Origin: Escherichia coli
GTDB taxonomy: Bacteria > Pseudomonadota > Gammaproteobacteria > Enterobacterales > Enterobacteriaceae
Length of the DNA stretch: 64,000 nt
Direction: 5' to 3' (one strand)
Assembly (NCBI RefSeq): GCF_013315695.1
Contig: NZ_CP054353.1
In this document: positions 1,277 through 41,528 of the stretch, piece by piece
How positions within the stretch are numbered: the stretch's first letter is position 1
How the letters are laid out: every line of letters starts with the position of its first letter
Translations under genes and position numbers: made by a program
The notes under the pieces: generated by a model
Seen by the model: only the letters and a program-made list of their open reading frames with translations
Databases searched by the model: none
Told to the model about the DNA's origin: nothing

Positions 1277-1762
1277 ATGCGTAAATTAACTGCACTGTTT
1301 GTTGCCTCTACCCTGGCTCTTGGCGCGGCTAACCTGGCCCATGCCGCAGACACCACTACCTCAGCACCGGCTGACGCGAAGCCGATGATGCACCACAAAG
1401 GCAAGTTCGGTCCGCATCAGGACATGATGTTCAAAGACCTGAACCTGACCGACGCGCAGAAACAGCAGATCCGCGAAATCATGAAAGGCCAGCGTGACCA
1501 GATGAAACGTCCGCCGCTGGAAGAACGCCGCGCAATGCATGACATCATTGCCAGCGATACCTTCGATAAAGCAAAAGCTGAAGCGCAGATCGCAAAAATG
1601 GAAGAACAGCGCAAAGCTAACATGCTGGCGCACATGGAAACCCAGAACAAGATTTACAACATCCTGACGCCGGAACAGAAAAAGCAATTTAATGCTAATT
1701 TTGAGAAGCGTCTGACAGAACGTCCAGCGGCAAAAGGTAAAATGCCTGCAACTGCTGAATAA
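1277..1762 (+). CDS. spy: Periplasmic chaperone Spy
   Basis: 161-aa ORF with signal peptide and the helical Spy/CpxP-like sequence (MRKLTALFVAS...LTDAQKQQIREIM...); position between astE and ves. Confidence 0.95.
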   Translation: MRKLTALFVASTLALGAANLAHAADTTTSAPADAKPMMHHKGKFGPHQDMMFKDLNLTDAQKQQIREIMKGQRDQMKRPPLEERRAMHDIIASDTFDKAKAEAQIAKMEEQRKANMLAHMETQNKIYNILTPEQKKQFNANFEKRLTERPAAKGKMPATAE

Positions 1763-1784
1763 TCTTTCAGCCAAAAAACGTAAG

Positions 1785-1850
1785 ACCGCCGGTCTTGTCC
1801 ACTACCTTGCAGTAATGCGGTGGACAGGATCGGCGGTTTTCTTTTCTCTT
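1785..1850 (+). terminator. Intrinsic terminator after spy
   Basis: Long GC-rich inverted repeat (ccgccggtcttgtccac / gtggacaggatcggcgg) followed by ttttcttttc. Confidence 0.5.
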
Positions 1851-1886
1851 CTCAAACAGATGCAAAAAAAGCCTGATCGCCACTAA

Positions 1887-3387
<1,501 letters not shown>

Positions 3388-3616
3388 TGTTGACTCCGAG
3401 TGCTGGTTATCTATCCAGTGTAACAGGCGGGGAGCGATTAAAAAAGAGGCGGGTTGATGACAAAGGTTACACCGTCAGACGTGCTACGCCTGTCAGGCCT
3501 ATTCGACTCATGCAATATATTGAATTTGCATAGTTTTGTGGGGCGAATAAGGCGTTCACGCCGCATCCGGCGTGAACAAAGTACTCTTTTTCGCACAAAC
3601 CAATATGTGCAAATTA

Positions 3617-4444
3617 TTACTTCTTCCAGAAATCATCGAAAACGGTAATTGGCGGACGGCGTTTATGTTCAGTTTTCAGATACCAGTTCTCTATTGTTCT
3701 GGCGACCTGTTCAGGTACGTTTTTCCCTTCCAGATAGTCGTCGATATTGTCATAGGTCACGCCGAGTGCCACTTCATCTGGTAGAGAAGGGCGATCATCT
3801 TCCAGATCGGCCGTTGGCGCTTTCTTATAAAGGTGTTCCGGGCAACCTAATGCCGCCAGTAACTGTTTACCCTGACGTTTGTTAAGACGATACAGTGGAT
3901 TAATGTCCGTACCGCCGTCACCATATTTAGTGAAGAATCCGGTAATGGCTTCTGCTGCATGATCGGTGCCCACCACGACACCGCTGGTCATACCCGCAAT
4001 GCTATATTGTGCTTTCATCCGCTCACGCGCTTTTTCATTGCCACGGACAAAATCGCTCAGTTCAATGCCTGCTTCCCGCAATGCCTGCTCGCTGGCCAAT
4101 ACCGCGCCCTTGATATTAACGGTTAATACGCGATCCGGTTGAATAAAGGCAATGGCATCCTGGCAATCTTGTTCGTCAGCCTGAACACCATAGGGCAGGC
4201 GTACGGCAATAAATTGCAGTGATTCGTTGCCAGTTTCCTGGCGCAGCTCATTAATCGCCATCTGGCACAGCTTTCCGGCAAGCGTGGAGTCCTGACCGCC
4301 GCTGATCCCGAGCACCAGTGATTTAATGAACGGATAAGTTTGCAGGTAGCTTTTCAGAAAATCGACACTACGACGAATTTCCTCTTCAGCATTAATCTGC
4401 GGTTTTGCGCCCAGCGCCTTTATTATTTGTTGTTGCAATGTCAT
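3617..4444 (-). CDS. nadE: NH3-dependent NAD+ synthetase
   Basis: 275-aa ORF with the SGGQDS PP-loop motif ([15 protein letters not shown]). Confidence 0.95.
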
Positions 4445-4645
4445 TGAACCCCTCCAGACAGAAAAGACAAAACTTCCTTAAAGCTAACCCGTTGCTACTG
4501 AAACGACAAGCGACAGCGGGCTGAATGGTGGTTAAAACGTCATACAGGAATCCTCTGAAAGCGGAGCCGTTTCGTTCACGGGCTTGAAAAAGCGCCCAAT
4601 GTATTCCAGGCTTATCTAACACGCTGATAAACAAGAGGACGGAAT

Positions 4646-31859: not shown

Positions 31860-31957
31860 CAGCCGAAAGGCACCCGCGCGTAATTTACCGTTTCCTGAGT
31901 AAATTCTCCAAATAAAATTCCACAGTCAAAAGTACAGAAACAAAAACAGGTATGTGA

Positions 31958-32215
31958 TCACATCGCCGGAAGTGGCAGCGACATCTGCGCATCACCACGG
32001 TGTGACGCTGGCAGGCTCTGCCACGGAATATCCGGTGAAGTACCACCGCTGCGCTTTACGGTGAGTTTTTCGAAGCTCTCCAGCGTCGAGAAGGAGAGAC
32101 TGCATTCGGGATTGTTGCACTGGTAGAGCTTCTGCCGGACAGTGCGTGAGTCGTTCGCGGCGCGGCTTGTGCGGGTGCGCGTGCTCGCACCACAAAAAGG
32201 ACACGGAAAAGACAT
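31958..32215 (-). CDS. ogr: Ogr/Delta-type zinc-finger late-gene activator
   Basis: 85-aa ORF with CPFC...C...NPEC zinc-finger spacing, adjacent to gene D as in P2. Confidence 0.75.
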   Translation of the reverse strand: MSFPCPFCGASTRTRTSRAANDSRTVRQKLYQCNNPECSLSFSTLESFEKLTVKRSGGTSPDIPWQSLPASHRGDAQMSLPLPAM

Positions 32216-32267
32216 GACGGAGACCTCCTTTTTTTCATGAAGGTGAATCTCCGTGATTTTATTCCTG

Positions 32268-33383
32268 TTATTCCTGTTGCGCTATCCATTCAGGAATTTT
32301 TAATTCCAGCTCAAGCCGCGTGGTGAAGCCGCTGTCGTCGATGTTGTGCTCCACCTTCGCCAGTACCCAGTCCTCCGCGTCGATGTCACTCTTGAAACCG
32401 GATACCGTGCCGCGCATTTCGGGGTACAGGTCGGGGCGACCGCGTGCCAGCGTGATGGAGAACTCAGCCGCGCCGCGCTGTAGCTGCTGCCATTTTGCCG
32501 CCGCTGCACGGCGTGCGGCCTCCTCGTTTTTGAAGGTTTTACGCATGACGTACACATTGCCGTCTGCGCCCTCCATGTAATCCCCCTCGCGGCTGCTGCT
32601 TTTCTCCTTTTTTGTTTTTTGGGCAGAACCACGTTTTGTCACGCTGACTTTTTTCTTTTTGCCAAAGTCCAGATCCAGCCAGTAAGCGCGCACCCCCGTG
32701 TACGCCTGCCGGTCTGCAATGCGGAAGTGATGGCTGTCACCGCTGCTGCGGGTGATGGCGAATGAGGGCAGCGGCTTTCCGCTGGCGCTCACCCCCTGTC
32801 CGGGCACGATGAAAAGCAGGGCACCGTTTTTGACGGTGGCGATGGCGCCCAGCATGTCCGCCATGCGCGTGAGAAACGAGATGTCACTTTCCTCCGTCTG
32901 GTCGGCGTGGTCGATTTCCACCTCTGCCAGCGAGGCGCTGATTTGTGCCTTCAGTCCGTAGCGGTACGCGATGGCAGAAACAACCTGTCCCACCGTCACG
33001 TCATGCCAGGACACTTCACGCTTCACGTTGAACTCCTGCCGGAAGTCTGCGCTGCTGGCCGTGATGGTGAGCCTATCCGGTGGTCCCTCATGTGTCACCT
33101 CGTCAACGATGAAGGTTCCCTTGTCTGTCAGCGCCTCACCTTTCCAGCCCAGCGCCAGACCCAGCGTCTGTCCGCGCTTCGGGAGTTGCACTCCGCCGTC
33201 GCAGTCGTCAATCGTGAGGGTTAACTGGTCCGCCTCAAATCCCCGGTTGTCGGTCATCGCCAGCGAGATGACCCGTCGGGTCAGCGCCGCGTTTTCCGTG
33301 CCCTTAACCGTGATGGAAAAATCAGGGATCTTCACGCACTCTGACAGACCGTTCAGGTATCCGCTTACGTCCGCAGGGTTCAT
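32268..33383 (-). CDS. Tail protein D (P2 gpD family)
   Basis: Translation from the internal Met (MNPADVSGYLNG...) aligns along its length with my recollection of P2 gpD (LTMTDNRGFEADQL, SGDSHHF, EFSITLARGR motifs). Confidence 0.85.
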   Translation of the reverse strand: MNPADVSGYLNGLSECVKIPDFSITVKGTENAALTRRVISLAMTDNRGFEADQLTLTIDDCDGGVQLPKRGQTLGLALGWKGEALTDKGTFIVDEVTHEGPPDRLTITASSADFRQEFNVKREVSWHDVTVGQVVSAIAYRYGLKAQISASLAEVEIDHADQTEESDISFLTRMADMLGAIATVKNGALLFIVPGQGVSASGKPLPSFAITRSSGDSHHFRIADRQAYTGVRAYWLDLDFGKKKKVSVTKRGSAQKTKKEKSSSREGDYMEGADGNVYVMRKTFKNEEAARRAAAAKWQQLQRGAAEFSITLARGRPDLYPEMRGTVSGFKSDIDAEDWVLAKVEHNIDDSGFTTRLELELKIPEWIAQQE

Positions 33384-33545
33384 CGCAATTTCTCCGTCTG
33401 TGTCTTCGTCCGGCGAAATACTCCCACGCGCACGGAGGCGCTGTAATCCTGCGTATGTTGTCGGAGAACGGTGAGAACAGGCAGCGCGTGAATGCGGGGC
33501 TGTTTTTCGGGAGGATGTCGCCACACAAAACACCAGGAGGTGCTC

Positions 33546-34727
33546 ATGAGTGAAACACGCTTTCACGGTGCACGCGTCAAAGAAAACACCGACCTTGTGA
33601 CCGCGATTAATGACATTGATTCCAGTGTCATCGGTATCGTGGCCACGGCGGACGATGCAGACAGCGACGCGTTCCCGTTAAACAAACCCGTATTGATCAC
33701 CCGCGTGGCGAATGTGCTGGGTAAGGCAGGCACAACAGGCACGCTGTACAAAACGCTCAAGGCGATTTCCGACCAGACCAGCCCGAAGGTTATCGTGGTG
33801 CGTGTGGCTGAAGCCGGAGAGGAAGGTGAGACACAGGATCAGCTTGTCATCGGTGGCTCGCAGGCTGACGGCAGCTACACGGGCATGTATGCCCTGCTGG
33901 TTGCTGAACAGGACGAGAGCATTGGTTACCGCCCGCGCATTCTGGCGGCTCCCGGCCTGGATACCGAAGCAGTCACATCCGCCCTGTGCGTCATTGCGGA
34001 CAAGCTCCGCGCCTTTGTGTACGCCGGATGTAACGGGTGCGACACGATGGCGGAGGCAATCACTTACCGTGCGAAGTTCTCCGCGCGTGAGCTGATGCTG
34101 CTGTGGCCTGACTTCATTGCCTACAACCCGGTGAGCGGAAATAACGAAACATTTCCGGCAGCGGCGTATGCGTGCGGGTTGCGTGCGCGGATTGACAGTG
34201 AACAGGGCTGGCACAAGTCACTGTCCAACGTGGCGCTGAAAAATGTTCTCGGTATGTCGCAGCAGGTGTTCTGGTCGTTGCAGGCCGAAGACAGTGATGC
34301 GAACAACCTGAACAACAAGGAAATCACCACGATTATTCGCCGTAACGGCTTCCGCTTCTGGGGGAACCGTACTGCCGAAACCAGCGACTACATCTTTGAG
34401 GTGTACACGCGCACAGCGCAGATTCTGGCAGATACCATCGCTGAGGCGCAGTTCGAAACCATTGACGAACCGCTGACCCCGGCGAACGTGAAGGACGTGA
34501 TTAGCGCCATCCGCGCAAAACTCAACGCCCTGGTCACCGCCGGGAAACTCATCGGTGCGGAGTGCTGGTATGACGTGCTGGACAACGGCACGACGGATTT
34601 GCGTCAGGGGCGCGTGCGCATCCGCTACAAGTACACGCCAGTGCCGCCGATGGAAGATCTGACGCTGTATCAGACCTTCACGGATGAGTATTTCGACTCC
34701 GCTTTTGCAACGCTGGGAGGTGCGTAA
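33546..34727 (+). CDS. Contractile tail sheath protein (gpFI)
   Basis: From ATG 33546 with AGGAGG RBS; FPLNKPVLIT, GFRFWGNRT and YTPVPPMEDLTL motifs match P2 FI. Confidence 0.9.
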   Translation: MSETRFHGARVKENTDLVTAINDIDSSVIGIVATADDADSDAFPLNKPVLITRVANVLGKAGTTGTLYKTLKAISDQTSPKVIVVRVAEAGEEGETQDQLVIGGSQADGSYTGMYALLVAEQDESIGYRPRILAAPGLDTEAVTSALCVIADKLRAFVYAGCNGCDTMAEAITYRAKFSARELMLLWPDFIAYNPVSGNNETFPAAAYACGLRARIDSEQGWHKSLSNVALKNVLGMSQQVFWSLQAEDSDANNLNNKEITTIIRRNGFRFWGNRTAETSDYIFEVYTRTAQILADTIAEAQFETIDEPLTPANVKDVISAIRAKLNALVTAGKLIGAECWYDVLDNGTTDLRQGRVRIRYKYTPVPPMEDLTLYQTFTDEYFDSAFATLGGA

Positions 34728-35243
34728 ATGGCTGTACCACGTTACGTTCGCCAGTTCACGCTGTTTGTGAACGGCAAAAACAAAATCGGCACGGTGACAG
34801 GCGTCACTCTGCCCAAGCTGACCCGAAAAACCGAAGCCTATCGCGGTGGCGGGATGCTGGGTGCGGTGCATATTGACCTCGGACTGGATGACGGCGCACT
34901 GGATGCCTCGTTCACCACCGGTGGGGTTGAAAAAGAGCTGCTCCAGGAATACGCCACTGACATTAACGAAGTGGCGCTGCGCTTTGTGGGTGAGCTGTTC
35001 ACCGATGGTGAGGAAAGTCAGCTCCTTGAGGTGGAGATGCGCGGACGCATCACGGAAATCGACCGTGGCGAAACCAAACAGGGCGACACCACACAGTACA
35101 CCTTCGCCGTCAAAAACACCTACTACAAGGAGTCGGTGGATGACAGTGATGTGACAGAAATCGACCTGCTGAACTTCATCTACAAAAAAGACGGCCAGAA
35201 CGTCTTTGGTGACCGCGTGAGTTCGGCGCTCGGTCTGAACTGA
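34728..35243 (+). CDS. Tail tube protein (gpFII)
   Basis: 171-aa ORF immediately after FI, P2 FII-like. Confidence 0.9.
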   Translation: MAVPRYVRQFTLFVNGKNKIGTVTGVTLPKLTRKTEAYRGGGMLGAVHIDLGLDDGALDASFTTGGVEKELLQEYATDINEVALRFVGELFTDGEESQLLEVEMRGRITEIDRGETKQGDTTQYTFAVKNTYYKESVDDSDVTEIDLLNFIYKKDGQNVFGDRVSSALGLN

Positions 35244-35289
35244 CAGCATTAACAGGGCGGCACATTGTGCCGCCACAGGAGAAAGAAAA

Positions 35290-35673
35290 ATGGCAGCAAA
35301 GAAAGATGACATCATGAACAGCGAAATCGTCGCAGGTGACACCACCACTGAAAACATCGATGTGGCAGAGGAAAAAACGGGGGTGAAGTTATCCTGCCCG
35401 GTGGTGCGTGGCGAACGCGTTATTGACTACGTGGAGATTGGCGAGGAAATCCGTCAGGCAGGCTCGTTGCGCGGGCTGTCTCTGATTGAGGTGCTGAACC
35501 TCAAAACGGACCCGATGATGACGCTGCTTTCGCGCGTGACCGCACCACGCCTGAAGCTGGCAGAAATCCAGACACTGGACACCGGTGATTTCGTGGCGCT
35601 GGCGACTATGGCTGCGAATTTTTTTGCTCCCACGGAGTCTGCGAAACCGTCCGTGGCGGTGATGGAAGCGTAA
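35290..35673 (+). CDS. Tail assembly chaperone gpE
   Basis: 127-aa ORF between the tube and tape-measure genes; contains a T7G slippery run near its 3' end. Confidence 0.7.
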   Translation: MAAKKDDIMNSEIVAGDTTTENIDVAEEKTGVKLSCPVVRGERVIDYVEIGEEIRQAGSLRGLSLIEVLNLKTDPMMTLLSRVTAPRLKLAEIQTLDTGDFVALATMAANFFAPTESAKPSVAVMEA

Positions 35674-35837
35674 TCACGCTGGCGAAGTTCGACAACGTTG
35701 AAGAACTGGTCGCTGATATAGCAGTCGTGTTTAACTGGTCGCCCGGCGAGATATTCTCAATGCCTCTCGTCGAGGTGATGAGCTGGCGTGAGCGGGCGGC
35801 GCAACGTAGCGGAGTCCGCAACAGTGAAATCCCTTGA
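35290..35837 (+). CDS. gpE+E' fusion produced by programmed -1 frameshift
   Basis: TTTTTTTG at 35619-35626; the -1 frame is open from the slip site to TGA at 35835-35837, overlapping the start of T, as in P2 E/E'. Confidence 0.55.
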
Positions 35838-38800
35838 TATTCGTGTCAGCTTTGGCGCAATTGACCGGCTGACATGCCCGACCGAAAACGCCCGCCGTCA
35901 GGTGGGCGCTCTCACTGAATCCCTTCAGAAGACGCAGAACAACATACAGGCGCTCGACAGACAGTCGAAGGTGTTCGATCGTGCCGCCGGAAATCTCAGT
36001 AAATACCGCGAACAGATTGCCCGCGCGGAGCAGAGGCTCGCCGGGCTGCGAAAGGCAGAGCAGAACGGTAACATCCTCTCCGAAAAGCAGCGCGAAACGC
36101 TGGCGGCACTCTCCGCGCGGCTTGAGCGCCTGAACGAGCTGCGCACGCGCGAGCGCGAAAAACTCCAGGCGGCGGCTGGCGAAATGCGTAAACATGGCAT
36201 TCTGCTTTCCGGCAGCAGCCGCACCATCGAAAGTGCCGTTCGTCGCACGCAGCAGTACAACGAGCAGCTCGAGCGTGAACGGCAGGCTCTGGCTCGCGTG
36301 ACGCAGGCACAGAGCCGCTATGAGGCCGCGAAGGCACAGGCGGAAAAACTGCGCAACACAGGGGCTGTGGCGATGGCGGCGGGTACAGGCGGCCTGTATG
36401 CGGCGCAGCGCATGATGGCTCCGGCGATGGAGTCCGAACAGCACGGTGCGGTCATCGCAGCCGGTTCGGGGGAAGGCGCACAGGATGGCGCACGTTACAC
36501 CCACATCATCCGTAACATACAGGCTGACGGTCTCGCTGATTTTGCCGGTGCTGCGGAGGCCGTGAGTGCGGTACGCAGCACGCTCGGCGCACTGGGCGAC
36601 ACCGGTGACAGGGAGCTTGAGCGCATCAGCCGTCGTGCGCTGGATATGCGGACCGTCTTTGGTGTTGATGTGCCGCAGAGCATTCAGGCCGCTGCCATCA
36701 TGATGAAGAACGGGCTGGCCGCCAGCAGTGACGAGGCTACTAACCTGATGACGGCAGGGATGCAGCGCATGTCCGCTGAAATGCGCGATGAACTGCCGGA
36801 AATTCTGCATGAGTATTCCACCCACTTCCGCAACATGGGCTTCACCGGCAGCGAGACAATGAGTCTGCTGGTTGAGATGGCAAAGCAGGGCAAGTTTGCG
36901 CTGGACAAAACCGGCGATGCCGTGAAGGAGTTCAGTATCCGTGGTTCGGATATGTCGAAATCCAGTGTTTCAGCGTATGAGACACTTGGCCTGAATGCCG
37001 AACGGGTGTCTGCTGCCATTGCTCAGGGGGGCAGTACCGCACGCCAGGCGATGCAGGTGACCGCCCGTGCACTGCTGGCCATCCGTGACCCGGCAGAGCG
37101 GGCGAACACGGCCATTGCGTTATTCGGCACCCCCGTTGAAGACCTTTCCGTTGACCAGATCCCGCAGTTCCTGAGGGCGCTGGCTGATGTTCGTGACAAT
37201 CTGGGCGATGTCACCGGTGTGGCAGACCGCATGGGGCAGACGCTGCGCGGTAATCTCTCCGGCGATATTCAGGCGCTGAGTGGTGCGTTCTCAGGGCTAC
37301 GCACGGACATCTTCGGTACTGTGACCGAGGATTTGCGCGGGCTGGTTCAGACGGTGAGCGCGTGGGTGACCCGGATGCGCGAATGGGTCGGAGAGCATCA
37401 GGCGCTGGTCAGGGTGCTGGTACTGGCGGGCGGGAGTGTTCTGGCGCTGTCTTCTACGTTCGGTGCGCTGTCACTGACGCTCGGGCTGATTGCGGGGCCG
37501 CTGGCAAAACTGCAACTGGGACTGGGGCTGCTGACGGGGGGCGGCGGCATTGGTGGTGCTGTCCGGCTTGTGTCTGCGATGGCGCTGCGCCTGACGGGGC
37601 TGCCTGCGCTGTGGGGGCTGGTCACGGGGGCGGTGTCGGTACTGGGTGGTGCAGTGGGGGCGCTGTTCAGCCCGGTCGGGCTGATTGTTGCCGCCCTGGT
37701 GGGCGGCGCGGTTCTGGTGTGGAAATACTGGGATCAGATCAGTGCGTTTTTTTCCGGCTTTTTTGCCGGAGTGTGGGAGGCGCTGCAACCGCTGCGGGAA
37801 GCCTTTGCGTCGCTGGCTCCGGTGTTCGGGCTGATTGGCGATGGCATCAAAGCCGTGTGGGAATGGTTCACCCGCCTGCTTGAACCTGCAAACGCCTCAA
37901 AAGAGACACTCGACAAATGCACCAGCGCCGGGGAGTCGTTCGGGAAAACGCTGGGGTGGGTCATTCAGAACATTGTGCTGGGGCCGCTGACACTGCTTCT
38001 TGATGGCCTCGGCACAGTGCTGAAGTGGCTGGGTGTTATCCCGGATGGCATCAGGGAAGCGCAGAAGGAGACGCAAAAACTCCAGGAGAGCGCCGCAAAA
38101 CAGGCCACACAAAAAGCGCCGGTTGCGTGGGAGTGGGATCCTGCACAGAAAAAAATGGTGCAGAAAACATGGTCGTGGTCATCAGATGCAGCGGAAAACA
38201 ACGGTGACAATAAACCCGCAATACCTGCCCCTGCGGTTCCCGGAGAGGTGAAGGGAACGTCAGACAATCCGGTCGGCAAACCCGGTAGTAAATCCCCGCT
38301 GGATGAGGCATGGTTCCGGCAGGGGATACAGAAAACCGCCAGCAACACCGGCGGGCTGCTTGAGGAAACCAAAAAACGTACTGGTCCCGGCGATATTGTT
38401 TTCAAAAACCTGCCCGGACCCGAAATCATTCACGGCGAGTGGAAAGCACCGCAGGTTATCCGGACAGTGCAGGCGGTATCGGCGGGCGGAGGACTGGCGG
38501 ATGCGCTGACAACGCTCTGGCAGAAACTCACCGGAAGACAGACTGCTTCACCCGTTCCGGTCGTGAATATTCCTGCGCCAGTGGAGAGAGTGGCACGTCA
38601 GGTATCCACGCTGCCACAGCCGCAGCACAACGAGGCAAATACAGAACTGGTTGCCGGTATTCAGCGCGTGCATGAGGCTGTGAACAGTCCGGGGGGAGAG
38701 ACGGTATCGCCTCCACCTGTGGTGAACGTTCTGATGCCAGCAGTGAATGTTCCTGCGCCAGTGGTGAGTGTGGCGCGTCAGGTATCCACGCTGCCGCAGC

Positions 38801-39288
38801 ACAACGAGGCAAATACAGAACTGGTTGCCGGTATTCAGCGTGTGCATGAGGCGGTGAACAGTCCGGGTGGAGAGACGGTATCGCCTCCACCTGTGGTGAA
38901 CGTTCTGATGCCAGCAGTGAATGTTCCTGCGCCAGTGGTGAGCGTGGCCCGTCAGGTATCCACGCTGCCGCAGCACAACGAGGCAAATACAGAGCTGGCT
39001 GCCGGTATTCAGCGCGTGCGTGAGGCTGTGAACAGTCCGGGTGGAGATGTGGCTTTATCTGTTCCTGTTGCGGAGGTTATCCGTCCACCGCTGCGACCGG
39101 AGTCCGTCAAAAAAGAAACCGCGCCACAAACGCAGGCTGCGGTATTTTCCGGTGAGATACACGTGCATCTGCACAACGTCAACACGCAGAATCCGCGTGA
39201 ACTGGCAAAACTGGTTGGCGAGGCTGTCCGCGAAGAGATGCGCAGACAGGTGCGTACAGGCATGAACAGCTTCCGTGACAGGGACTAA
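35788..39288 (+). CDS. Tail tape measure protein (gpT)
   Basis: 1166-aa ORF with a coiled-coil N-terminal half, Gly-rich TM segments and C-terminal tandem repeats; the track start at 35788 is a GTG and the true start is uncertain. Confidence 0.85.
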   Translation: MSGRRNVAESATVKSLDIRVSFGAIDRLTCPTENARRQVGALTESLQKTQNNIQALDRQSKVFDRAAGNLSKYREQIARAEQRLAGLRKAEQNGNILSEKQRETLAALSARLERLNELRTREREKLQAAAGEMRKHGILLSGSSRTIESAVRRTQQYNEQLERERQALARVTQAQSRYEAAKAQAEKLRNTGAVAMAAGTGGLYAAQRMMAPAMESEQHGAVIAAGSGEGAQDGARYTHIIRNIQADGLADFAGAAEAVSAVRSTLGALGDTGDRELERISRRALDMRTVFGVDVPQSIQAAAIMMKNGLAASSDEATNLMTAGMQRMSAEMRDELPEILHEYSTHFRNMGFTGSETMSLLVEMAKQGKFALDKTGDAVKEFSIRGSDMSKSSVSAYETLGLNAERVSAAIAQGGSTARQAMQVTARALLAIRDPAERANTAIALFGTPVEDLSVDQIPQFLRALADVRDNLGDVTGVADRMGQTLRGNLSGDIQALSGAFSGLRTDIFGTVTEDLRGLVQTVSAWVTRMREWVGEHQALVRVLVLAGGSVLALSSTFGALSLTLGLIAGPLAKLQLGLGLLTGGGGIGGAVRLVSAMALRLTGLPALWGLVTGAVSVLGGAVGALFSPVGLIVAALVGGAVLVWKYWDQISAFFSGFFAGVWEALQPLREAFASLAPVFGLIGDGIKAVWEWFTRLLEPANASKETLDKCTSAGESFGKTLGWVIQNIVLGPLTLLLDGLGTVLKWLGVIPDGIREAQKETQKLQESAAKQATQKAPVAWEWDPAQKKMVQKTWSWSSDAAENNGDNKPAIPAPAVPGEVKGTSDNPVGKPGSKSPLDEAWFRQGIQKTASNTGGLLEETKKRTGPGDIVFKNLPGPEIIHGEWKAPQVIRTVQAVSAGGGLADALTTLWQKLTGRQTASPVPVVNIPAPVERVARQVSTLPQPQHNEANTELVAGIQRVHEAVNSPGGETVSPPPVVNVLMPAVNVPAPVVSVARQVSTLPQHNEANTELVAGIQRVHEAVNSPGGETVSPPPVVNVLMPAVNVPAPVVSVARQVSTLPQHNEANTELAAGIQRVREAVNSPGGDVALSVPVAEVIRPPLRPESVKKETAPQTQAAVFSGEIHVHLHNVNTQNPRELAKLVGEAVREEMRRQVRTGMNSFRDRD
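38555..39052 (+). repeat. Tandem repeats of 180/174 nt inside the tape-measure gene (about 2.8 copies)
   Basis: gtgaat(a/g)ttcctgcgccagtgg... recurs at 38563, 38743 and 38917; encoded peptide PAPVxxVARQVSTLPQ...HNEANTELVAGIQRVHEAVNSPGGETVSPPPVVNVLMPAVNV repeats in frame. Confidence 0.7.
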
Positions 39289-39760
39289 AGGAGACGCAAT
39301 TATGATGATGATTTTTGGCATGTTTGTGTTTGAACTGAAAACGCTGCCGCATCAACAGATTCAACAAAACAAAACGTGGCGGCATGTGAAAAATGAGCGA
39401 ATCAACCGTTCTGCGGCCTGGCAGTATATTGGCGCAGGTGACGACCAGATCACGCTGTCCGGTCTGCTGTACCCGGAAATTACCGGCGGTGAGGTGTCGC
39501 TGACACTGCTGAACACCCAGGCCTACACCGGATGTCCCTGGCCGCTGATTGATGGTACGGGGCAGATTTACGGAATGTACGTGATTACGGGATTACAGAC
39601 CACCCGCTCCGAACTGGATCGCTACGGGAAGGCAAAAAAGATTGAGTTCTCCATCAGCTTTCAGCGGTGTGATGAGGATATGCGGGAGAGGCTTCAGTCT
39701 GCTTCTGCAGGTGATTTACTGAACACGCTTAAAGACAAAATGGCGATAGCGGCATTCTGA
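39275..39760 (+). CDS. Tail protein U (gpU family)
   Basis: 161-aa ORF following T with an MMMIFGMFVFELKT segment; the actual start may be the internal ATG at 39302. Confidence 0.8.
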   Translation: MTGTKGDAIMMMIFGMFVFELKTLPHQQIQQNKTWRHVKNERINRSAAWQYIGAGDDQITLSGLLYPEITGGEVSLTLLNTQAYTGCPWPLIDGTGQIYGMYVITGLQTTRSELDRYGKAKKIEFSISFQRCDEDMRERLQSASAGDLLNTLKDKMAIAAF

Positions 39761-39770
39761 ATAAAAAAAG

Positions 39771-39795
39771 AGGGAGTGTAAAAAGCACTCCCTTA
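39771..39795 (-). terminator. Intrinsic terminator, minus-strand orientation, abutting the U stop codon
   Basis: Reverse complement reads gggagtg-cttttta-cactccc followed by tctttttttat. Confidence 0.45.
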
Positions 39796-40140
39796 TTGCC
39801 TTCATGGAAAAGAAGCAAATGTTGTCAATACATTCTGACTATATATAAATCGCCCGATGAAGGCAATGGTGATGTTCGGGAAATAAAAAAGCCCTCACAA
39901 AGAGGGCGGCATGCATTGTGTGAAGATTTAATTTTTCTGCTTGCAGGGGGATTATATTGAACGGTATTCATTCAATGCAATATTTTTAATTGTCATTATC
40001 ATTAATGAAAATGTTTCTTGTGTTTTTGTTGCTCTGATTACAATCCCGTTTATTACTGTGTCTTTGCGGCAAAAAAAAAGCCCGCACGGGGCGGGCAAAG
40101 AATGTTTGCATGTGTAGAACAGTGCGGGATTATAAATATA

Positions 40141-40560
40141 TTATGCGTTCTGAAAAGTCCCCTTTGATGGAGATTCAGGCCATACCAGCGCATTATAACA
40201 ATCTTTATTCATCACGGAAGTGAACGTCAACTGCTGAAGTTCCCTAATATATTCAATCCACGTAGCCAACCTTCCCTTGTCTGCATTGCTGATGGTGCCG
40301 GGCAATAACTCAGATTGCCAGATTCTGATCCTCTCTTTTGCCTCCGGCAGCAGGGGATTTCGTTGTCATTCTGCTTTAGCCTGCCACTTTTCAGGTGGCA
40401 GCACATGACGAACAATATTTTCATCATCAAATATCCAGTTACCTGAGTCATCAGCACGTTGGTTAGCGTTAATATCAGAAGTATTAACAACACTAAAACC
40501 GACATGATTAAGTGTTGATGCCTCTCTGGTAATGGTGACAATAATATTATTTCGTTGTAA
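40141..40560 (-). pseudogene. Degenerate ORF of unknown family with an in-frame TGA and no start codon
   Basis: Minus-strand frame reads ...NWIFDDENIVRHVLPPEKWQAKAE*QRNPLLPEAKERIRIWQSELLPGTISNADKGRLATWIEYIRELQQLTFTSVMNKDCYNALVWPESPSKGTFQNA*, protein-like on both sides of the internal stop. Confidence 0.4.
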
Positions 40561-40770
40561 ATCATTTTGATTTTATCTGGTCGAAAGGTCCCTGCTTCGT
40601 TATGTCAGTTTTATCGCCTTCAGAGGAAACCAGATTACTTTGTGCTTCTTTTTCTAACACATACAGTCCCGGAGTTAATATTGCCTGTTTTATGTTCTTG
40701 AGTGCATCATATTAATCTCTTACATATTGTATCTGGTGAAATTTATAATTTTCTGAAGCTGCCTGAAAGA

Positions 40771-40870
40771 ATTGAGTTTCCTGCAGGCTTTCAATGGTGT
40801 GATGAGGATATGTGGGAGAAACTCCAGTCTGCTCCTGCAGGGGGGGCTTACTGAACACTATCAAAGACAA
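40771..40870 (+). repeat. Diverged direct copy of the 3' end of gene U
   Basis: attgagtttcctgcaggctttcaatggtgtgatgaggatatgtgggagaaactccagtctgctcctgcag...ctgaacac...aaagacaa parallels U 39641-39740 at about 80 percent identity. Confidence 0.6.
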
Positions 40871-40903
40871 ATCTTCGTCGTTGATCGCATTCCCTTAACC
40901 TGA

Positions 40904-40938
40904 CGCCACCACCCCACACAGATGACGGGGTGGTGGCG
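40904..40938. terminator. Perfect 12-bp inverted repeat hairpin between convergent tail operons
   Basis: cgccaccacccc ... ggggtggtggcg, located between the rightward FI-U unit and the leftward H unit. Confidence 0.5.
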
Positions 40939-40943
40939 TGATT

Positions 40944-41240
40944 TCACCAGTAACTAACCAGCAGCCAGAACAACAGGCATATTGCCACTGGTGCAGCAAA
41001 ATCCATCAGGCTTCCGGCATCCCACACGCGCGGATCAAAACCACCCCACCAGGGCATGTTAATTCGTTTCCCTTTCCCGAATTTTTCAATCCAGCGATAT
41101 TCTGCCTGGGTGTGTTCACGCGCAATGAAGAACGAGCAACCGGCTATCGCTCCGTAAACCCAGTTTCCCGTAAGAATGCCAGCCAGTACCTGCGCAGCCA
41201 CGGCACAAAGTGCATGAAGGACAGGCGTTATATCCATCAC
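40944..41240 (-). CDS. Hypothetical small membrane protein downstream of the tail fibre gene
   Basis: 98-aa ORF with hydrophobic N- and C-terminal segments (MMDITPVLHALCAVAAQVLAGILTG...AICLLFWLLVSYW); no family recognised. Confidence 0.5.
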   Translation of the reverse strand: MMDITPVLHALCAVAAQVLAGILTGNWVYGAIAGCSFFIAREHTQAEYRWIEKFGKGKRINMPWWGGFDPRVWDAGSLMDFAAPVAICLLFWLLVSYW

Positions 41241-41249
41241 TCCCTCCCT

Positions 41250-41528
41250 TCAGCTCCATTCCCGAAGCGGTGCTTCCAGCTCCACCACATAATCAGAGAA
41301 CACAGAAACATCAAACGTATCATCAAGAATACGAATGTTGACAAAATAACCGTCATTCCGGATACAGACAGGTTCTCCCTCTTCATTTTCCCCTGTTTCT
41401 GTATAGGTGAAACCAATTTCATCGACTAACAGTTTGTTCTGGAGGTCTTCATTTTCCTCCCAGCCAAGAGATGACAGGAGGGCTTTAAACTGCTGTTTGT
41501 CATGAAACTTCAAAGTCAAATCTTTCAT
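41250..41528 (-). CDS. Hypothetical acidic protein downstream of the tail fibre gene
   Basis: 92-aa ORF overlapping the H stop by 4 nt; strongly acidic; no family recognised; it occupies the position of a tail fibre assembly protein. Confidence 0.5.
   Translation of the reverse strand: MKDLTLKFHDKQQFKALLSSLGWEENEDLQNKLLVDEIGFTYTETGENEEGEPVCIRNDGYFVNIRILDDTFDVSVFSDYVVELEAPLREWS

Follow-up and report, generated by a model that had tools for sequence, protein, structure and literature searches.

A variable-number tandem repeat in the tape-measure gene of a P2-type Escherichia coli prophage, with a probable effect on tail length

The phage tail tube forms by polymerization about the tape-measure protein up to the end of that protein (PMC5099701, PMC3271669). 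Internal deletions and duplications of lambda gpH and TP901-1 TMP rescale the tail proportionally, as cited in PMC5099701 and PMC3271669, and the ruler logic has been extended to simple contractile tails (PMC10457771). Tandem duplications occur naturally in tape-measure genes: Belcaid, Bergeron and Poisson (2011) described a 44-amino-acid (aa) block that is present four times or three times in prophages of the Bacillus cereus group (PMC3271669), and Mahony et al. proposed that repeats ease the natural gain and loss of tail length (PMC5099701). Here we describe a repeat array of this general kind in the tape-measure gene of a P2-type prophage, located in a 64,000-nucleotide stretch of Escherichia coli DNA (contig NZ_CP054353.1; hereafter the window). 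We consider it highly likely that the array is a genuine variable-number tandem repeat (VNTR) with a unit of 174 or 180 bp (58 or 60 aa) within the coding sequence, and that it probably affects tail length.

Tandem Repeats Finder (TRF), run on 36–42 kb of the window with a reporting threshold of score 30–50, recovered a single strong array at 38563–39047 (period 174, 2.8 copies, 93% matches, 1% indels, score 832). The original prediction, made from the sequence alone, had proposed this check; its interval of 38555–39052 and its estimate of about 2.8 copies agree closely with the result. In register, unit 1 (38563–38742, + strand) comprises 180 bp and encodes the 60-aa peptide VNIPAPVERVARQVSTLPQPQHNEANTELVAGIQRVHEAVNSPGGETVSPPPVVNVLMPA. 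Unit 2 (38743–38916, +; 174 bp, 58 aa) has one copy of CCRCAG (Pro-Gln) fewer, and the partial unit 3 (38917–39045, +; 129 bp, 43 aa), which ends in ...REAVNSPGG, shares this 6-nt deletion. Nucleotide identity is 96.0% between units 1 and 2 (seven mismatches and one 6-nt indel), 94.6% between units 2 and 3 (seven mismatches) and 93.8% between units 1 and 3. The indel corresponds to the second CCRCAG copy, which in the window is carried by unit 1 only. All unit lengths are multiples of three, and their frame is that of the 1154-aa open reading frame (ORF) in which they lie. The units were thus rightly described as in frame, with a few substitutions and one 6-nt indel (7–8 differences per pair). 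The 180-bp, 60-aa unit length given in the original prediction applies to unit 1 and to the relatives L001–L003 introduced below; in the window the consensus period is 174 bp (58 aa), since one CCRCAG copy is missing from two of the three units. A lack of nucleotide similarity between units had been named as the refuting point. Similarity is present, and chance resemblance can be dismissed because the units are 94–96% identical over 129–174 aligned bases, head to tail. With this pairwise identity and a TRF score of 832, the array has the high-identity, head-to-tail units of a coding VNTR. Its longest exact repeat within the window is 74 bp. The sole internal sub-period is a repeat of 21 bp (about 7 aa; VVNVLMPA / VNVPAP / VVSV), seen in the period-21 rows of TRF and in the sequence at the junctions of units 1 and 2 (38719–38771, +) and units 2 and 3 (38893–38945, +). 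From its position, this sub-repeat is a possible source of the microhomology that seeded the first duplication.

The array occupies codons 914–1074 of the 1154-codon, P2 gpT-like gene at 35824–39288 (+), and therefore lies in its C-terminal part, as predicted. Our coordinates use the GTG start that RefSeq annotates in relatives; the longest ORF reading begins at 35788 and gives a 1166-aa translation with the same end (39288, +). Residues 255–447 of this translation match the Pfam family PF10145 (PhageMin_Tail; E 8.5e-17, 62.1 bits against a curated cut-off of 33.2). The 1154-aa protein is identical to WP_250886375.1, ‘phage tail tape measure protein [Escherichia coli]’, encoded on a 5.17-Mb contig; 1808 homologues at E ≤ 1e-30 are called tape-measure protein by their sources, and the counterpart in relatives is annotated in the same way. 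The gene order is that of a tape-measure locus, with sheath, tube, a −1 frameshift chaperone pair, tape measure and gpU, and relatives are annotated alike. The domain match, the position between gpE/E' and gpU and the exact protein match all uphold the earlier identification of the host gene. The protein is much longer than P2 gpT, which has about 815 aa. Its best matches in the phage database are P88-like Peduoviridae, at 38–39% aa identity over 83% of the protein, and a sequence search of the PDB with the whole protein found no related solved structure, the only hit being a chance match at E 0.99. About 200–230 bp of the gene at 38002–38230 (approximately residues 727–802, WEALQPLREAF...ETLDKCTSAGESFG) is about 80% identical to regions of E. 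coli plasmids. These matches fall in 30 places with no gene listed there, and the listed plasmids are mostly 90–120 kb in size. Judging from the sequence, these plasmids may be phage-plasmids that contain a related stretch of tape-measure gene, in which case mosaic exchange would be implied.

We surveyed 5426 complete E. coli genomes, together with draft and viral (IMG/VR) contigs, for relatives of the gene. A close relative is found in nine of the complete genomes, at 91–96% nucleotide identity. Six of these are free of the repeat module and encode proteins of 1016–1022 aa, one of them frameshifted. The other three carry the module with a period of 180 bp: TUM9803 (L001) has three modules in a protein of 1158 aa, SWHEFF_58 (L003) five in 1275 aa, and AR_0085 (L002) six in 1335 aa. 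Two modules are present in the 1095-aa proteins P0001 and P0139, both from draft assemblies, and in the IMG/VR contig L007. The copy-number variation among related prophages that had been anticipated is therefore observed, as three, five and six modules in complete genomes and two in draft or viral contigs. In L005 (E. coli no107), the module-free tape-measure gene at 1537–4606 carries a frameshift and is annotated as two coding sequences; this prophage copy is, by its sequence, probably defective.

Two pairs of near-identical prophages differ by exactly one unit. The window and L007 are 98.0–99.7% identical over about 7.7 kb, with L007 one unit shorter; its first unit is a hybrid, resembling window unit 1 at the start and thereafter agreeing with unit 2 at 173 of 174 positions. 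Between L002 and L003, identity is about 99.2–99.5% and the difference amounts to one 180-bp unit; their four shared full units are 100% identical. Close relatives thus differ by whole units, as is characteristic of a coding VNTR, in a series of two, three, five and six copies. Units resemble other units of their own array more than those of other arrays. The 6-nt deletion is shared by window units 2 and 3 and both units of L007, and the unit endings are of two kinds, GEGALPSP and GETVSPPP, that are likewise shared within arrays; L001 combines the two unit types in a mosaic. The order of units in L002, A-B-A-B-A-A', suggests duplication of a two-unit block. Whole-unit differences combined with the sharing of variants within arrays point to unequal homologous recombination or replication slippage between units that are 94–100% identical, accompanied by concerted evolution; the 6-nt deletion has spread among several units of a single array type. 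A word-indexed protein search with the module returned only fragments of the same E. coli prophage lineage, and an exhaustive HMMER search of 1.84 billion representatives found no relative of the module outside that lineage. The one extra match, P0151 (27% identity, E 7.5e-6), was rejected as a homologue; it is an unrelated repetitive protein that gave a chance match of repeat against repeat.

The ratio of nonsynonymous to synonymous divergence (dN/dS) is about 0.2–0.3 between distinct unit types and about 0.07–0.1 in the rest of the tape-measure gene. The value in the units indicates that the peptide encoded in the + frame is constrained and that minus-strand ORFs over the array are by-products. 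Two such ORFs, at 38528–38986 and 38548–38976, were rejected as genes and treated as by-products of a repeat that is free of stops; the substitutions fit the + frame. Synonymous divergence (dS) is 0.20–0.34 between window-type and L002-type units, 0.15–0.20 in the N-terminal 2.7 kb of the gene in the same lineages, and 0.02–0.16 among units within a single array. The comparison of units with flank indicates that the module is older than the lineage split, whereas the individual duplications are recent. The earlier description of the repeats as young is therefore apt for the duplications and does not extend to the module, which on these values is at least as old as the split. In the last 80 codons, dS is only 0.05–0.07 among module-bearing alleles and reaches 0.44–0.50, with a dN of 0.10, between module-bearing and module-free alleles, even though their N-terminal parts are equally close or closer. 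The module thus travels with a distinct C-terminal haplotype, and on the same values we rejected the module-free alleles as the zero-copy end of the series.

Two motifs conserved across genera, DIVFKNLP...GEW and the terminal F(S/N)GEIHVHLH...NSFRDRD, flank the array. In the window, the upstream border of the intervening linker is formed by DIVFKNLPG (38392–38418, +), which is conserved in the distant homologues P0005, P0006 and P0015. The conserved C-terminal tail (GEIHVHLHNVNTQNPRELAKLVGEAV...NSFRDRD; 39154–39285, +) is 44–45 aa long in all homologues and, by analogy, is presumed to be the hub-docking end (PMC5099701). The linker between the two motifs measures 61–67 aa in distant relatives, 110–113 aa in module-free proteins and 186–429 aa in module-bearing proteins. 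These sequences indicate that the repeat expands a Pro/Val/Ala-rich linker that is already tolerant of length change. Each unit would add 58–60 residues to the tape measure. At a helical rise of 1.5 Å per residue this corresponds to about 9 nm, and the height of a tube/sheath disc is about 4 nm. Provided that the segment has the same extended form as the remainder of the ruler, the contractile tail would lengthen by about 9 nm, or approximately two tube/sheath discs, per unit, and the predicted spread between two-copy and six-copy alleles would be about 35 nm. With a unit that is weakly predicted to be only partly helical, its contribution to tail length could also be more, less or nothing.

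Several observations weigh against a proportional effect on tail length or narrow the comparison on which it could be based. Of the 58 residues of the unit, 13 are Val and 8 are Pro, and Trp and Phe are absent, a composition atypical for a ruler segment; a unit of 58–60 aa without W or F does not belong to the classical 11- or 18-aa, aromatic-marked tape-measure repeats. An AlphaFold2 model of the C-terminal 312 aa, calculated from the single sequence without an alignment, has a mean predicted local distance difference test score (pLDDT) of 43.9 and is unreliable beyond a crude helix/coil pattern; pLDDT values of about 70 are reached only in a terminal strand-plus-helix that corresponds to the conserved C-terminal tail. 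In this low-confidence model, each unit is predicted to form two helices, of 9 and 17 aa, and a Pro-rich coil of about 26 aa, so that less than half of it would be helical. The absence of aromatic residues and the weak, partly helical model make the conversion from residues to nanometres uncertain, and the segment might not determine length. The two-copy members are known only from draft or viral contigs, in which the array may have collapsed. The clean allelic series spans only two to six copies, the module-free alleles being a different haplotype. Finally, a megablast search of 50,697 phage records with the tape-measure gene gave no nucleotide-level match.

Some of these features would suit a repeat that is real but lies outside the ruler, so that tail length would not change in proportion to copy number. 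The segment could be held in the hub or the tube lumen, with the linker as a spacer for hub docking, or it could act after ejection, for instance by spanning the periplasm, aiding inner-membrane insertion or varying the surface seen by tape-measure-directed exclusion proteins; the array-bearing C-terminal end is expected to leave the tail first. Beyond the Pro/Val-rich, aromatic-free unit and its modelled short helices, this explanation draws on the location of the array in a linker that is bounded by two conserved C-terminal motifs and varies from 61 to 113 aa even without repeats, and on TP901-1, in which the extreme N- and C-terminal parts dock and about 810 of 937 residues are length-determining (PMC5099701). 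Yet the array ends before the last 80 residues, while the C-terminal minimum in TP901-1 is approximately the last 60 (PMC5099701), and the internal tape-measure deletions and duplications that have been tested gave a proportional change in tail length, according to PMC5099701 and PMC3271669. Nothing observed here points to a post-ejection role, and the module has no homologue from which a function could be borrowed. We therefore regard a location outside the ruler as possible but doubtful. A more speculative proposal is that the module is not a passive ruler at all and that its copy number would work as a ‘contingency locus’ of the phage, adjusting tail length or else the periplasmic reach or recognition of the ejected protein; this may, for example, concern the spanning of the envelope or the evasion of tape-measure-directed superinfection exclusion. 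Such a role is compatible with the orphan status of the module, with purifying selection and with its linkage to a distinct C-terminal haplotype, although we consider it unlikely.

The original prediction had also cautioned that repeats of this kind can be artefacts of assembly collapse. For L002-type relatives in draft assemblies the caution is well founded. P0141 (6 contigs) and P0145 are partial proteins that end inside unit 1, P0149 is a 138-aa fragment on a 416-bp contig consisting only of repeat, and the two-module P0139 (9 contigs) matches, apart from the array, the six-module protein of the complete AR_0085 genome with 100% identity. For the window itself, a collapsed or falsely expanded copy number is highly improbable. 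Its units are resolvable, since they are told apart by their substitutions and the indel and share no exact repeat longer than 74 bp, and the exact protein was found on the 5.17-Mb contig. An independent 352-kb contig encodes P0127, which has an identical 161-aa array and three substitutions elsewhere, and multi-copy arrays are present in three complete genomes. The array could also be a neutral expansion in a decaying, non-functional prophage, of no consequence for the particle. This would accord with the lack of a nucleotide-level match among isolated phages, with the split gene of L005 and with the rarity of the module, which occurs in only 3 of 5426 complete E. coli genomes. It is nevertheless quite improbable, given that the ORF is intact in every module-bearing allele seen, that dN/dS is low both in the units and elsewhere in the gene, and that the P2-type tail and head genes checked are present and the chaperone frameshift site is intact. 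A genuine VNTR that probably influences tail length remains the reading we favour.

The surrounding sequence is E. coli chromosome, with the host genes thrS-infC-rplT-pheS-pheT at 24–31 kb (Pfam). E. coli core homology stops at approximately 31330, directly downstream of ihfA, which we take as the left prophage junction; in most E. coli genomes, homology ends at position 830 of the query 30500–33500. The prophage begins only after ihfA, at about 31.33 kb, because the genes at 18–31 kb are host housekeeping genes (thrS, infC, rplT, pheS, pheT). This site is occupied in some genomes by a related P2-like element (Hok/Gef, ogr/Delta zinc finger, gpD). A tRNA search over the window found no tRNA gene, and a PADLOC scan of the genes at 18–31 kb gave no match. 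On the host side, just upstream of thrS, a 632-aa ORF at 21693–23591 (−) contains a ShET2 enterotoxin N-terminal domain (PF07906, E 2e-45) and ankyrin repeats.

The P2-type genes present are those for sheath, tube, chaperone, gpU, gpD, fibre, baseplate, capsid, scaffold, terminase and portal, and a homologue of replication gene A is also found in the window. The tail sheath gene (33492–34727, +; Pfam Phage_sheath_1) is followed by the tail tube gene (34728–35243, +; Pfam Phage_tube) and the tail assembly chaperone gene E (35290–35673, +; phrog_103). A slippery run of seven T residues at 35619–35625 would give the −1 frameshift extension E' (E+E'), which continues to 35837 (+), 14 nt into the tape-measure gene; its sequence identifies it as the conserved P2 E/E+E' programmed frameshift, and the E' part is a separate ‘GpE family phage tail protein’ coding sequence in the RefSeq annotation of relatives. 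Directly downstream of the tape-measure gene is a gpU-like tail gene (39275–39760, +; Pfam PF06995 Phage_P2_GpU, E 9e-40). In the region 32268–39760, the late control gene gpD, on the minus strand, lies directly upstream of and divergent from the plus-strand sheath-tube-E-T-U block, and the same arrangement is annotated in the relative L006. This placement of gpD is unlike the order in P2, which is FI-FII-E-T-U-D. Between gpU and the tail-fibre gene, the 1.8 kb at 39761–41524 contains only two short ORFs, 40227–40565 (−) and 40938–41429 (+); neither has a PHROG match, and 40938–41429 also has no Pfam match. Relatives have a tail-fibre assembly gene at the corresponding position. Immediately downstream of the portal gene lies a 268-aa ORF at 55450–56256 (+) with matches to PDC-M04A, a candidate defence family of PADLOC (E 2.6e-35), and to phrog_3732, of unknown function; judged from these matches, it could be a defence gene or a moron within a P2-type hotspot.

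If the array acts as part of the ruler, these prophages represent a natural allelic series of tape measures of 1095, 1154/1158, 1275 and 1335 aa. The series would permit a direct test of the ruler, in terms of nanometres per residue and quantization by discs, for a P2-type contractile tail with a Pro-rich, non-canonical segment. Otherwise, the locus illustrates the mosaicism and repeat turnover that are ordinary in phage genes. For this lineage, short-read assemblies are an unreliable source of tape-measure lengths and copy numbers, because truncated proteins, repeat-only contigs and probable collapse occur in them.

Tandem repeats of variable copy number in the tape-measure genes of related prophages are an already-known, ordinary form of variation. 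As in the prophages described by Belcaid et al. (PMC3271669), the units here are arranged head to tail and in frame, and close relatives differ by whole units through duplication or loss. The repeats of that study have a period of 11 (or 18) aa with conserved Trp/Phe and occur in siphophage-type prophages of Firmicutes. In contrast, the unit described here spans 58–60 aa, lacks Trp and Phe, is rich in Pro and Val, and lies in the C-terminal linker, in an E. coli prophage with a contractile tail of the P2 type. The internal gain or loss of residues would be expected to scale the tail as in the engineered lambda gpH and TP901-1 TMP constructs cited in PMC5099701 and PMC3271669. Those are laboratory constructs with measured tails, whereas the two-, three-, five- and six-copy series is natural and known from sequence alone. 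T4 gp29 is a further engineered tape measure that rescales tails. The order sheath, tube, E/E', T, U is shared with P2 and its gpT and with P88-like Peduoviridae (Xuanwuvirus P88, Escherichia phage 503458). In the P88-like phages, tblastn covers about 83% of the window protein in two pieces, with no match at the nucleotide level. The module was seen in protein searches only in this E. coli prophage lineage. What is specific to this locus is a 58–60-aa, Pro/Val-rich orphan unit that occupies the C-terminal linker in a prophage with a P2-type contractile tail and is present in a series of two, three, five and six copies on near-identical backbones.

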